Virus record (IMG/VR): IMGVR_UViG_2545824644_000015
Coordinates: 1-38,209 of that record
Reading direction: 5' to 3' (one strand)
DNA: 38,209 bases
DNA from: a virus
Taxonomy: Duplodnaviria > Heunggongvirae > Uroviricota > Caudoviricetes
Position numbers and translations under genes: made by a program. Below the pieces are notes generated by a model. That model ran no database searches. It saw only the letters and a list, made by a program, of their open reading frames with translations, and was not told where the DNA came from. Below, piece after piece: positions 2,568 to 25,118 of this stretch (within the stretch, counting starts at the first letter, position 1; each line of letters opens with the position of its first letter).

Positions 2568-5108
2568 CTAAATTATCTGCGTCACTGACAATGCTTTCTT
2601 TAACACCACTCCTCCGCTCGTTGTTGCTCCCTTTGAGTACTCAAAGGAGATATTGGCTGAAATGCCAAGATTCTCATCAGGACAATACCACCAAATTCCA
2701 ATAGGGAGCACAGATGCCTTGTCATAACTGACAGTGCGATCATACGACGACTGGTACCCATTGAAGTCATACCATTTAAACCCAGTAATTGCGTTGCCAG
2801 CAATCATGCAATCAGTGCTCATAACTACACCAAACGCATTCTTAATATTAGATGCAACTAATATGGCACTCATTGCGATATTCCTAAAGCTACATGACGT
2901 CACAGAGTATCCATTTGTATTTGCGTTTATAACTCCTATTTCTCCAAGGAAAGTCGTTGTCCTTATAGATCCATTAAAAAAAGATGTTGATTTTGTCCCT
3001 CTAAGACACACTCCCACATCAGACTCAAACGCGCTATCAGATATATCGATATACGTTGAACTTGCTGATGGATTATTCTTATAAAAGCTAACTCCGTAAT
3101 TTAGATTATTGAAATTACAACTATTAACCCTTACAGATGATACTCTTGCATCATATAAATAAAGGCCTGCCGTCATCCCTTCAAGGTGTGTGTCGTTTAA
3201 TGGAAACACTGCATTATCCCCAGCCTCGTTAGGATCATTCATTAATGTTTTAGGGTTTGTGAATTTATTTTTAATTATCGATGTAAACTCATCACAAAAA
3301 AAGTCATGTGATGCGCTATTAATTACCTTAAACCCTGAGAATCCGAATGGCTTCCCACCAGAGATTATTGCCAAACAAAATGCTTGCGCCCCACCGCGTA
3401 TTCTATATTGATTTGATTTTGATTCAAATTTAAAATTGCCTTGTAATGTTGAGTTGGTGATACAACTAAAAGAGTTACCTATGTATGATACGTTATTATT
3501 ATATGATGACGTTATGCTATAGCTGTTTACTTTATTTCCAGATATAAGAACATTATCACAAAAAAATTGAGCACATATCCCTGATTTTGATGTAACAACA
3601 TTATCAGACATTATGCTATGAATAACCATTGAGTGAAAAGTTATGCCCCAATGATCATGGCTATACGAAGTTGATATTAATGGATCGTTTATTATATTTC
3701 CAGTGCAGTTAACATAACAAACTTGCCTATATACTCCTATTGTTGAATCATTCAACCCAAGAGTTGAGCAAATGTTATCTTTAATAGAGCAAACAGAACT
3801 TGATGTGGCATAGCTAAACATAGCTTCTGGGATATTCCCTGTTAATCTATTCCTCTCGAATCTACCAGAATAACAATAATATCGCATCTCAACATGGACA
3901 TTATGGAAGTTACAACCAATCACTTCTGGCTCGATCTGAGACAAAAGCATGATTCTTCTTAGAGCATTGCTACTGCTTTTCATCGTCACACCATCTTTAA
4001 TTTTGAATGGCGTAAGGTTACCTGTTGGGAACCCAAATTTCGCAGTCCCAGCCACCTGATTTACCACCAGAGGTTGCGCCAAAATAGCCTTATTGGTAGT
4101 TGTATGACCTATAATTTTTGTTACCTGAATGAACTGAGATTGGTATCCATTCAAGTTACGTGTAAGTGCCAACCCATCTATGCTGTCAGCAGGTGTGGTG
4201 GATTTTTCCGCTTCATCAATACAGAACGGATATCCATTATCAATGACGACATATTGCCCTGTGCGATCTACACCATCGAGATATACCTCAGAGTGCCCTG
4301 CAGATGCAGGCTGAGAAAAAACTGTCATAGTTGGGAAGTCATATGGCTCAACCCTAAAATGATTACCCAATGTTATTGTGCCACGACCATATATACCTTT
4401 TGCCCCGGCTGGCGCTGTATAATCTGTTGTGGTGGTAAGGTCAGCTCCTGTAATGTTTACTTCTTCTCCGAAGTTAAACGCTGCCGTCAGTGCCTGCTCG
4501 GTTGTTACAAACCTATTGGTGTAGTTAAGGATATGGTTTAAATCATATCCGTTAAGATTCCCTACAGACTTCCAGTTTGAATCTGGTGAACTACCAGGAG
4601 GGACAGTTAATGGAACTGACAGATCACCAGTATAAATGTAATACCACCCAGTTGATGAATAGAATAGTGCCTGATATTTACTTGTTATCGTTGCACCAGA
4701 AGCAAAGGATACATTTTGCAGGCGTTTATAAACATTAAATCTAAAATTTTCATTAGCGTATAAAGAAAACTGATCTGGGTCGTACCCTAAAACATTCGGA
4801 AAATAGAACTGCTTCGCCCCATACGCATCGTACACAGCCATAGAATGGCCTTGCACAGTTACGAACTTGGCAATCTGTCCGTTATATACCGGGTAACCAG
4901 CAGCGTTAATGATGATTGGTTGAGAAACAGGAACGTGAGAACCGTCTTCGTTCTCCACATAAACCTGAATCCGGTTTTCAGGATTTACAGGGTCAGTGTC
5001 AATTTTACCGATATAAATTTCGCCATTAGCTACGGCTTTAAAAGAACGAGCCATAGTGAAGAGTTGCGAAGGCATCGATACAATCACATTAGCTGTAATG
5101 TCTGTCAT
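2568..5108 (-). CDS. Tailspike protein (P22-type head-binding N-domain fused to divergent receptor-binding domain)
   Basis: 846 aa; N-terminal ~115 aa [45 protein letters not shown]... matches the conserved P22/Sf6/HK620 tailspike head-binding domain as remembered; rest is an AT-rich, Asn/Ser/Thr-rich beta-helix-like domain. Confidence 0.9.
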
Positions 5109-22153: not shown

Positions 22154-22588
22154 TTATCCGTTAAAAGGGATATCAGTTAAGTTATCCCGTGTAGGGTATA
22201 AGCCATTGTCGAGACCACTCATTGAATGGCCTCTGCAATAACCGATGTCTTTCCATCAGTCCGCCACCACAAAGAATCTTTTTTGCCTTAAGGCTGGAGG
22301 TTCATCTTTCAGTGGCTGCCAGTGTTATTTCCCCACTTACTGGCTTGGGTTGTTTCGCGGTACTGCCGTAACTGGTTGCCCAGAATAAATTCCGGTTTCA
22401 TTATCAAGCCCACCCGTAGATAGGCTTTGTAATGAACTGGCTCTTATCTCAACGCAGCCCCTTACCGCGCGCCAGATGCTCAACTTCAAGCATCAGCAAT
22501 GAGATGTTTAATCTGGATTCTCTCCAGAAGTGATCGCCACCCTGTCTACAGAGCCAGATGTGAAGGATGATGAGTAAAATTATCGCTA

Positions 22589-24048: not shown

Positions 24049-24124
24049 TGGTGCTGGTTAACGGACTTGAACCGCTACCCATTCGCTTACAAGGCGACTG
24101 CTCTACCATTGGAGCTAAACCAGC
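24049..24124 (-). tRNA. tRNA-Thr (anticodon UGU), CCA encoded
   Basis: Hand-folded cloverleaf: 7-bp perfect acceptor stem, perfect 4-bp D stem, anticodon loop CUUGUAA, T-loop TTCAAGT, discriminator A then CCA. Confidence 0.7.
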
Positions 24125-24129
24125 ATATT

Positions 24130-24204
24130 TGGCGGGACAGCGTGGACTCGAACCACGATAAGAAGGTTAACAGCCTTCCGTAATTACCTTTATACGACTG
24201 ACCC
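24130..24204 (-). tRNA. tRNA-Asn (anticodon GUU), CCA encoded; one acceptor-stem mismatch
   Basis: Hand-folded: T-arm CGTGG-TTCGAGT-CCACG, anticodon loop CUGUUAA, acceptor stem 6/7 paired, D stem 3/4 paired; could be a degenerate copy. Confidence 0.55.
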
Positions 24205-24268
24205 AAATAAAAAATCCCGAAACCGTTGTGCAGGCTCTAACTATTACCTGCGAACTGTTTCGGGATTG
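24205..24268 (-). terminator. Late-operon terminator tR' (lambda-like)
   Basis: Long hairpin aatcccgaaac...gtttcgggatt followed by U-run on minus strand; flanking sequence matches lambda 6S RNA/tR' region as remembered. Confidence 0.8.
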
Positions 24269-24397
24269 CATTTTGCAGACCTCTCAGCCTGCGATGGTTG
24301 GAGTTCCAGACGATACGTCGAAGTGACCAACTAGGCGGAATCGGTAGTAAGCGCCACCTCTTTTTATCTCACTACCACAACGAGCGAATTAACCCAT

Positions 24398-24889
24398 CTA
24401 TCCCATACTGGAGAATTCACCATGATATTTTATCCTGGCATTTTCCATTGCCTTTCTCGCCTCCTCGATATCGTCAAAACACCCTACATGAATCCTTTTA
24501 CCATTGACCCTAATTCTTCCAACCCACTTGTTTGCAGCAGAATTAAAAGTCACCCCCTTCACACCAGATGAATTGTTTTTCCTCATCTTGCTGTTCCATG
24601 AGTTTTGAGTGTTAGTAACAACACGAAGATTGGCTATCCGGTTATCAGATCTATCACCATTAATATGGTCAATCACATCGGTTGGCCAATCATTGTAAAC
24701 CATCAGCCATGCAATTCTATGGACATATAGCCGCATCCCATAAAGTTTTACCTGCAGATATCCATTTGTTTTATAGCCAACAACAGCGCCATAGATAAAT
24801 CTAGAAGACCGAGGTGGATTCTTCCATGTAAGAATTCCAGTATCTGGATTGTAATTAAAAAGTCTCAATGCATCTTCACGTTTTAACAT
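24398..24889 (-). CDS. HNH homing endonuclease (HNH_3 with AP2-like DNA-binding region)
   Basis: 163 aa with VIDHINGDRSDNRIANLRVVTNTQN HNH core and C-terminal GV(K/T)...W...GRIRVNGK...GCF AP2-type repeat; AT-rich. Confidence 0.85.
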   Translation of the reverse strand: MLKREDALRLFNYNPDTGILTWKNPPRSSRFIYGAVVGYKTNGYLQVKLYGMRLYVHRIAWLMVYNDWPTDVIDHINGDRSDNRIANLRVVTNTQNSWNSKMRKNNSSGVKGVTFNSAANKWVGRIRVNGKRIHVGCFDDIEEARKAMENARIKYHGEFSSMG

Positions 24890-25089
24890 AGGCGAACCAC
24901 ATAGATATTAGAGCCTGCTGACATAGAAATATCACCACGAGAGAAGTCGCCAAAGGCGATATTTCTCAGGCTCTATTCCTATGTGCTCTCGAGTTTATGA
25001 TGCGCATGTCAGTGCGCTTAGAACTTAAAGATGAGGTGGGTAAAAACTGAAAGAATGTGAACAGATATAAATCTGCCATTCTTGGGTTA

Positions 25090-25118
25090 AATTTACCCAA
25101 CTTTATTCAAAAAGTCAA
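25090..25118 (-). promoter_or_regulatory. Late promoter PR' with Q-binding element
   Basis: Minus strand TTGACT-17 bp-TAAATT immediately downstream of Q; spacer ttttgaataaagttggg nearly identical to lambda PR' spacer as remembered. Confidence 0.8.

Follow-up and report, generated by a model that had tools for sequence, protein, structure and literature searches.

What becomes of the late switch of a lambda-type phage when a nuclease gene lies inside its leader, and how might such a gene be expressed from there? The question is raised by IMG/VR record IMGVR_UViG_2545824644_000015, a Caudoviricetes sequence of 38,209 nucleotides (nt) that, taken over its whole length, we refer to as the window. 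On its minus strand, between the late promoter PR' and the terminator tR', lies an open reading frame (ORF) of 163 amino acids (aa), which an initial annotation, made from the letters alone, took to be an HNH-AP2 homing endonuclease inserted into the late leader. Alignment with lambda PR'-tR' and related prophages, which that annotation had called for, set the boundaries and bore out the insertion: a minus-strand block of 684 nt following PR' is missing from lambda, HK446, and Kapi1, and filled and empty alleles are found in flanks that are 97 to 99% identical, a presence/absence polymorphism at one defined site. The locus is probably best described as a free-standing HNH-AP2 putative homing-endonuclease cassette resident in a lambda-type late leader, between the pause element and tR', and the comparisons fit a long residence there. 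No earlier description of the insertion was found in the literature searched, whose coverage was incomplete.

The inserted block stands in place of CG at +3/+4 of the empty allele (Table 1). The block can equally be read as 682 nt inserted past +8 together with two substitutions, and ATGG occurs at both of its junctions; from anchor to anchor, the window spans 915 nt and lambda and HK446 span 233 nt, so the net gain is 682 nt. After the -10 hexamer, empty alleles read GGGTAAATT-TGACCC-AACGATGG-GTTAATTCG in Kapi1 and HK446, with TGACTC in lambda, and the window reads GGGTAAATT-TAACCC-AAGAATGG-CAGATTT...GGGATAG-ATGGGTTAATTCG, so that the insertion splits TGACxCAACGATGGGTTAATTCG. Divergence had been placed directly after the -10, which proved too early: homology extends for another 14 nt (window, TAACCCAAGAATGG; Kapi1, TGACCCAACGATGG; lambda, TGACTCAACGATGG), and unrelated sequence begins at +9 (25075). 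On the other side, lambda-like sequence restarts at 24397 (ATGGGTTAATTCGCTCG) right after the TAG stop of the ORF, exactly where it had been expected, and runs on through tR', which is intact (hairpin, 24264-24216; T tract, 24214-24209) and lies 682 nt farther from PR'. All 44 of the filled alleles collected share these junctions, AAGAATGG followed by CAGATT (GAGATT in one), so the arrangement is not due to chance, and GA at +3/+4 (CG-to-GA) is strictly linked to the insert. The allele that precise loss would leave, AAGAATGGGTTAATTCG, was not found in IMG/VR or in 5,426 complete Escherichia coli genomes.

Upstream of the block, the late region follows that of lambda closely. PR' begins 42 bases past the stop codon of Q, and its -35 (TTGACT) and -10 (TAAATT) hexamers are those of lambda, as first noted; the Q binding element (QBE) differs from that of lambda at 2 positions, the same 2 as in HK446 and Kapi1, and the HK446 record labels the same stretch "lambda PR' with 2bp mismatch." The Q regions of lambda, HK446, and Kapi1 are 97 to 99% identical to that of the window. 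The start point, +1, was placed at A 25083 by homology with that of lambda, from which a transcript ending at tR' is the 194-nt 6S RNA.

A sigma-dependent pause requires sigma region 2 bound to a -10-like element and also a G-rich segment just 3' of it, which provides a contact for sigma region 1.2 and the G at -10 of the elemental pause; the exact pause site is set by a pyrimidine at the RNA 3' end, in lambda C16, followed by G17 (PMC5001585). From lambda to the window, the -10-like hexamer has changed from AACGAT to AAGAAT, with A+2 and T+6 retained, and G7 and G8 are retained after it (GGG in lambda, GG in the filled allele); if anything, the filled-allele hexamer looks nearer the consensus than that of lambda. 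Positions +9 to +17 are new (CAGATTTAT; CAGATTTATA to +18). The elemental pause C16/G17 of lambda is absent, and +17 offers a partial elemental-pause match, with a U end, G8 at -10, and A as the next base. The claim that the insertion had replaced the pause-inducing sequence thus applies to the pause-site part (+9 to +17) and not to the sigma-binding part (AAGAAT at +1 to +6, GG at +7/+8), which, as read from the alignment, is retained. AAGAATGG is identical in 44 of 44 filled alleles, across at least four discriminator/QBE haplotypes. Q, the -35, QBE, the -10, the -10-like element, GG at +7/+8, and tR' are all present and collinear as in lambda; pausing and Q loading on the filled allele may be quantitatively normal. 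The -35-like element directly upstream of the pause element is bound by repositioned sigma region 4 when Q-lambda loads (PMC9388147). Here the window carries a private G-to-A change (TAACCC), the other 43 filled alleles having TTGACT, TTGACC, or similar; the change may make Q loading weaker in this particular prophage. Positions +9 to +22 (25062-25075, minus strand) could fold into a 5-bp hairpin, CAGAU-UUAU-AUCUG, in the window only, other filled alleles having AUCCG; this is probably chance.

From +1 to the ATG of the HNH gene, the leader measures 194 nt, in line with the ~190 nt first estimated. A promoter scan gave no credible promoter for the gene besides PR', the one weak promoter-like site lying inside the ORF, and a scan of the minus strand from PR' to the ORF detected nothing resembling a terminator. 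In lysogens, PR' fires constitutively and its transcripts normally end at tR' (PMC7547250). Because the gene lies upstream of tR', behind a constitutive promoter and with no intervening terminator, its transcription should be independent of Q, and the product expected without Q is an ~876-nt PR'-tR' transcript carrying the HNH ORF. Expression from PR' under the control of Q had been proposed; PR' indeed appears to be the only plausible promoter, and it is the control by Q that would have to be given up. The leader also contains two short ORFs, one of 44 aa that starts at a TTG and one of 37 aa that starts at an AUG at +5, which were rejected as non-conserved, with non-synonymous differences among close alleles; the frame of the second is broken by a 1-nt length difference in L011, a relative whose HNH protein is 86% identical (loci compared with the window carry L numbers). 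The 6S RNA of lambda opens with a minimal ORF, AUG-GGU-UAA, at +5 (+5 to +13). In the filled allele, AUG-GGU-UAA (24389-24397, minus strand) directly follows the HNH stop, and the AUG at +5 opens the 37-codon ORF.

The 163-aa protein was confirmed as HNH-AP2, with matches to PF13392 HNH_3 (E value, 5.7e-17) and PF00847 AP2 (E value, 5e-8). Residues D74, H75, N77, N83, N87, and N99 are invariant in a 30-sequence alignment. In an AlphaFold2 model (predicted local distance difference test score, 93.5), the C-terminal domain superposes on the AP2 (GCC-box) domain of AtERF1 with a deviation of 1.3 Å over 51 residues, and the N-terminal part gives a weak match to I-PpoI. Sequence and fold searches of the PDB returned AP2 domains and the weak I-PpoI match, with no characterized or solved close homologue. 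As far as sequence and model go, the protein appears to combine an HNH domain with conserved catalytic residues and a sequence-specific DNA-binding module. The phage proteins closest to it, at 42 to 47% identity, are annotated as HNH or homing endonucleases and come from T1-like coliphages and from phages of Salmonella and Xanthomonas (see also PMC2248197 and PMC2790892). Against L011, the HNH coding sequence has a dN/dS of 0.08 at a dS of 0.88, indicating that the protein is under purifying selection and that the cassette is old. A group I intron was ruled out, there being no match to Intron_gpI or another Rfam family, no 3' intron segment, an ORF stop that abuts host sequence, and a non-coding site; so was a packaging-type HNH protein like HK97 gp74, given the HNH_3-AP2 family and a position far from the terminase genes.

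The 3' two-thirds of the leader is a conserved structured RNA of ~130 nt that is not specific to the HNH gene. Its long hairpin consists of helices b (19 bp) and c (11 bp), with a 6- to 7-nt bulge between them on the 3' strand; the pairing a-a' connects the 6 to 7 nt immediately 5' of b with the apical loop of c, and the loop of a small 5' hairpin, P1, pairs with the bulge. Over 31 distinct copies, 97.7% of cells are standard pairs, versus 33 to 50% with the partners slid, and two-sided changes in 8 pairs (39 cells) were equaled by 0 to 1 of 500 shuffles. RNAalifold independently recovers P1, b, and c, and the minimum free energy of the module has a z-score of -3.5. The covariance model that built the alignment was made without pseudoknots and held neither the loop-bulge nor the a-a' pairing; both were judged by per-sequence complementarity, column counts on the alignment made with it (A2) being misaligned at insert columns. 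In the wider set of copies, the loop-bulge pairing is kept through five versions (CTGACGT/ACGTCAG, CTGACAT/ATGTCAG, TCTCAC/GTGAGA, TCGCA/TGCGA, and TCACAC/GTGTGA), and a-a' is kept through seven (CGAGAG/CTCTCG, CATGAG/CTCATG, CCAAGA/TCTTGG, CTGAGAG/CTCTCAG, CACGAG/CTCGTG, CCCGAG/CTCGGG, and CACAGAA/TTCTGTG). G-U pairs are frequent, and the reverse strand scores at most 24 bits, against 138 on the sense strand, which together indicate a sense-strand RNA. The one plausible Shine-Dalgarno (SD) sequence, a weak GUGG (24900-24897; AAGG or UAGG in other copies), lies mostly inside b'; because its G residues pair in the 3' end of b', the folded state should limit translation. The covarying sense-strand fold, its fixed distance to the start codon, and its overlap with the SD are the features expected of a cis-regulatory leader and suggest such a role. 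Plausibly, we infer, c and a-a' stack (11 + 7 bp) to about the length of b (19 bp), in a compact fold built on a loop-bulge three-way junction; alternative conformers or RNase III processing are equally open. Five Rfam 15 scans, which covered the window, 16 loci, and, at permissive settings, the module by itself, returned only tRNAs, ALIL, and sub-threshold chance hairpins, and no C4, isrK, HEARO, riboswitch, or ribozyme. P1 is deleted in one Stx2a phage lineage (L094, Stx2_EH1965, 1514-1643) and partly duplicated in L013 (~3880-3925, CGCACTGACATCAT-GCGCACTGACATGCGC).

The module is widely distributed. A 20-nt leader motif, TTTCTAYGTCAGCAGRCTCT, occurs on 25 IMG/VR contigs and 22 Xenorhabdus contigs, several Xenorhabdus genomes having more than one copy; one further match, in an unrelated metagenome-assembled genome (L075), was taken as chance. 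Among copies derived from the pattern, the start codon is nearly always 19 to 22 nt past the motif, and the genes that follow vary (HNH-AP2, P22-Ant-like, Rha-like, and others). The covariance model found diverged copies at 26 to 66 bits, among them copies upstream of HK620 hkbK (KilA) and epsilon34 gp68 (GIY-YIG) and in CUS-3, Stx2a phages, a Klebsiella phage, and Salmonella S107. E. coli prophages with the HNH allele carry second copies before KilA-N or Rha genes behind the lysis cassette. A blastn search with the KilA-type variant retrieved 152 phage records, 77 of them Stx-converting, and 954 of 5,426 E. coli genomes. The usual order is lysis genes, intrinsic terminator, module, variable gene, and terminase, the genes downstream of the module being functionally heterogeneous. 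The module is apparently a widespread and uncatalogued phage RNA family, of which no prior description was found in the same incompletely covered literature. No second copy was found in the window. Between its lysis genes and DUF2560/terminase (22154-22588, minus strand), the slot is empty, ~430 nt with only a 50-aa ORF; related prophages have the module with KilA-N or Rha in this slot. KilA-N-, Rha-, and Ant-type proteins behind the module (L089, L090, L092, L009, L006, and L040) have a similar C-terminal segment (...ASMSGRLLNRWG..KKP.L..R...LEQQ.Q...PG), as if a single kind of C-terminal domain were joined to exchangeable DNA-binding domains at the N terminus.

Table 1. Features of the late-leader locus (window positions unless a locus is named) and further copies of the RNA module
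Feature	Position	Strand	Basis
Q antiterminator gene, lambda-type, 207 aa	25161..25784	(-)	ORF and Pfam PF03589 Antiterm, E value 1.3e-57
PR' late promoter: -35 TTGACT, QBE in 17-nt spacer, -10 TAAATT	-35, 25118-25113; -10, 25095-25090	(-)	Promoter scan and alignment with lambda, HK446, and Kapi1
-35-like element, TTAACC here versus TTGACT/TTGACC	25085..25090	(-)	Alignment; 44 filled alleles
Sigma-dependent pause element: +1 = A 25083, -10-like AAGAAT +1 to +6, GG +7/+8	25076..25083	(-)	Homology to lambda AACGATGG
Inserted block, 684 nt in place of CG at +3/+4 of the empty allele	24398..25081	(-)	Alignment
Spacer between pause element and RNA module, ~55 nt, poorly conserved, without terminator	25021..25075	(-)	
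Structured RNA leader module	24882..25020	(-)	Match to covariance model R1, 138 bits
P1 hairpin	25017-25013 / 25006-25002	(-)	
P1 loop CTGACAT (last base shared with P1) pairing with bulge ATGTCAG	25012-25006 / 24924-24918	(-)	
Helix a / a'	24991-24986 / 24943-24938	(-)	
Helix b / b'	24985-24967 / 24917-24898	(-)	
Helix c / c'	24966-24956 / 24935-24925	(-)	
HNH_3 and AP2 endonuclease gene, 163 aa	24398..24889	(-)	ORF and Pfam
Lambda 6S-RNA region from +5 (ATGGGTTAATTCG...) to tR', displaced 682 nt downstream	24208..24397	(-)	Alignment with lambda and L011
tRNA-Asn(GTT) and tRNA-Thr(TGT), outside the insertion	24049..24204	(-)	ARAGORN, Rfam tRNA
Further module copy	L089 1216-1352		
Further module copy	L091 1216-1356		
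Further module copy	L090 1514-1654		
Further module copy	L093 1198-1332		
Further module copy	L088 1490-1626		
Further module copy	L007 5955-6091		
Further module copy	L009 5778-5921		

With a filled allele defined as a match to at least 80% of a 1,101-nt query at 97 to 99% identity, 16 of 5,426 complete E. coli genomes carry it, and more than 1,200 genomes have empty lambda-type alleles; none of 50,697 phage records has the filled form. It also occurs on 14 full-length IMG/VR viral contigs and 4 metagenome contigs, the IMG/VR contigs being 38 to 61 kb long. Carriers vary in their nin regions, in the presence of the downstream tRNA genes, and in QBE and discriminator haplotype. The filled alleles share no flanking haplotype, discriminator and QBE variants differing 6 to 30 nt from the junction. 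Decayed HNH copies stand at the same site in IMG/VR, with an in-frame internal deletion that leaves 54 aa (L035 and L043) or a frameshift after ~40 codons (L038 and L054), and in both types the RNA module upstream is intact. A scan of GTDB species genomes with a protein pattern found no relative, and a metagenome scan for the leader motif returned only the same E. coli allele.

More distant relatives, at 86, 74, 66, 62, and 56% protein identity, are each found ~250 nt past the end of the gene before them. That gene is Q in four of the five, of a lambda-like type (cut at the contig end), an ES18/P22-like type of 254 aa, a type of 273 aa, and a Xenorhabdus type of 276 aa; the fifth relative, L034, has in this place an unscored, truncated ORF whose CxxC motifs resemble those of Q. 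Their early transcribed regions are mutually homologous (AAGAATGGCAG, AAGAATGGGAG, AATGCTGGGAG, AATGCTAGGAG, AATGCTAGGAT, and AATGATAGGAT), and in all of them the hexamer keeps A as its second base and T as its sixth (AATGCT, AATGAT). ES18, which has the same Q type as L012 and no HNH gene, departs from L012 immediately past the -10, which means that discriminator and pause element come with the cassette. Identity between the window and L011 is 80% for the 3' end of Q, 83% for the promoter region, 74% for the spacer, 95.3% for the RNA module, 83.5% for the HNH coding sequence, and 73% for the 6S region; on these figures, the RNA module is the most constrained part of the cassette. In the Xenorhabdus-type relatives (L033, 1117-1385; L034, 519-776), there are two intrinsic terminators, one after the PR' pause region and ahead of the RNA module and one past the HNH gene. 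Because a terminator precedes the module there, HNH expression in these relatives should depend on Q.

The cassette is thus a composite, made up of its own early transcribed region (AAGAATGG...) with the -10-like pause element, a spacer of ~55 nt, a pseudoknotted RNA module of ~130 nt with its basal helix over the SD, and a nuclease ORF that abuts lambda sequence. PR' would fire constitutively, and polymerase would pause near +15 to +17, with AAGAAT and the adjoining GG available to sigma region 2. Without Q, the cassette would be transcribed to tR', so that the ~876-nt HNH mRNA replaces the 194-nt 6S RNA and the gene is transcribed in lysogens and during early infection; with Q, the same transcript would continue into the late genes. 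The folded leader would keep translation low or gated. The nuclease would most likely cut HNH-less PR' leaders of related phages, and recombinational repair would copy the cassette in, that is, homing.

Several points weigh against this account. No co-conversion tract is visible, polymorphisms starting within 6 nt of the left junction, and the flanks of L011 have diverged as much as its gene, which would fit vertical co-divergence with ordinary recombination as well as it fits homing. Independence from Q would not be general to the HNH lineage, the Xenorhabdus-type relatives apparently following a Q-dependent logic and the lambda-type alleles a Q-independent one. The loss of C16/G17 and the weakening of the -35-like element to TTAACC could mean that Q loading is impaired in the window. 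Two HNH-bearing genomes, NZ_OZ040950.1 and NZ_CP196291.1, have a second match to the Q-PR'-tR' query; if that match is an empty lambda-type allele, the nuclease would not be destroying such sites within one cell, which would speak against its being active and constitutively expressed. The main rival explanation, which on the sequence data we regard as less likely, is that the block is an ordinary moron moved by lambdoid mosaic recombination and not by homing, its nuclease being kept for a benefit to the prophage such as the cutting of superinfecting lambdoid phages; conserved PR' on the left and ATGG microhomology on the right would let the block shuffle between phages. The left junction does fall within sequence common to all PR' types (TGACxCAA), ATGG does stand at both junctions, flank divergence in L011 tracks gene divergence, and the Q-to-S interval is a known moron slot, which in the window also holds tRNAs; purifying selection as strong as that on the nuclease is, moreover, unusual for a purely parasitic gene. 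On the other hand, an HNH_3-AP2 protein of this size has the typical architecture of phage free-standing homing endonucleases (3,810 phage records, many so annotated), the filled allele is rare and patchy with some copies decayed, and the lineage stays at one site across four Q types.

It is improbable that the insertion simply broke late regulation, with the pause site and Q loading lost and the carriers being defective, decaying prophages. The replacement of lambda +9 to +17, including the elemental pause site, and the G-to-A change in the window would be expected under that explanation, whereas the invariance of AAGAATGG in 44 alleles, the retention of A+2 and T+6 in every relative, the intact Q, lysis, and terminase genes nearby, the persistence of the same architecture at a dS of ~0.9, and the occurrence of the filled allele on long viral contigs all speak against it. 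Even less probable, to the point that we give it very little weight, is that the module works as DNA and not as a functional RNA, serving where cassettes meet as a linker for recombination or as a site for protein binding. Its position does coincide with the 5' limit of the exchangeable genes (KilA-N, Rha, Ant, GIY-YIG, HNH, and others) of a slot known to vary; against this, compensatory changes keep four helices and the loop-bulge pairing through five to seven sequence variants, many of the G-U pairs would be A-C mismatches on the opposite strand, where scores are poor, and the module keeps a fixed distance to the start codon with the SD inside helix b. Taken together, the cassette and the module allow a broader proposal, which we offer tentatively and put somewhat short of an even chance: pseudoknotted phage RNAs of ~130 nt would form a new class that gates the translation of late-operon accessory genes (KilA-N, Rha, Ant, GIY-YIG, and HNH) of lambdoid and P22-like phages, in response to a ligand, a protein, or a processing event, and the HNH lineage would have carried this RNA and a portable pause element into the PR'-tR' interval of at least four Q types, as a selfish element that restores the regulatory site in which it is inserted and profits from transcription in the lysogen.

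The cassette can be set beside several known systems. Free-standing HNH_3-AP2 genes (T4 mobE and those of Xanthomonas phages Xop411 and Xp10 and of T1-like coliphages) have the same domain architecture and size, and free-standing phage HNH genes likewise show intergenic insertion, presence/absence polymorphism, and decayed copies. They lie within conserved protein genes or in the gaps separating such genes, and the window cassette lies inside a non-coding regulatory leader, PR'-tR', of a temperate lambdoid phage, supplies what looks like a working copy of the element that it interrupts, and has a constitutive promoter; its nuclease activity is a prediction from sequence. The window is collinear with the Q late cassette of lambda in Q, PR', QBE, pause element, and tR' (PMC9388147) and differs in having 682 extra nt between the pause element and tR', a replaced C16/G17, a mutated -35-like element, and, instead of a short terminated transcript, a predicted ~876-nt mRNA. 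StxS of Stx phages is also a lysogen product of the constitutively transcribed PR'-tR' interval (PMC7547250); it is an Hfq-binding small RNA, whereas the interval in the window holds a protein-coding gene with a structured 5' leader.

The translation of T4-type homing endonucleases (I-TevI and mobE) is controlled by hairpins, and the lambda N leader is processed by RNase III. These leaders resemble the module in placing a stable structure over the ribosome-binding site of a potentially toxic or timed gene; the module is far more elaborate, with four helices and a loop-bulge pseudoknot, and is shared with unrelated genes. Like the antirepressor leader RNAs (P1/P7 c4, N15, and Salmonella IsrK), it is a structured RNA just upstream of ant/KilA/Rha-type genes, and its covarying complementary segments are reminiscent of c4 a'/b' and their targets; unlike c4 and IsrK, it has no Rfam match to C4 or isrK, holds all its complements in one unit, and stands in a late operon behind a terminator.

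The nuclease insertion itself is a modest variation on a known theme, the phage homing-endonuclease gene, and the RNA leader family is apparently undescribed. What sets the locus apart is a regulatory non-coding site with a rebuilt pause element, the predicted Q-independent transcription at the lysogen stage, and a pseudoknotted leader RNA. It suggests that the lambda late switch can tolerate 0.7 kb of inserted DNA 8 nt past its start point, provided that the sigma-binding portion of the pause signal is rebuilt, and the filled allele offers a natural test of the determinants of Q loading, as +9 to +17 appear exchangeable. The nuclease gene has been placed in the sole interval of the late region that is transcribed in lysogens, which bears on the expression of selfish genes and exclusion functions by prophages. 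The structured RNA is very common, being present in about 1 in 6 E. coli genomes, including Stx2a phages, before antirepressor-like and nuclease genes, and may control genes of prophage cross-talk.

Beyond the cassette, the two tRNA genes begin 4 nt past the T tract of tR'; they are common to Kapi1 (which has no HNH gene), mEp506, and many E. coli prophages and are absent from lambda. In one HNH-bearing prophage (L007, 1113-2326), rusA and ninH, which lie just ahead of Q, are separated by an inserted IS3-family element that contains an ALIL pseudoknot.

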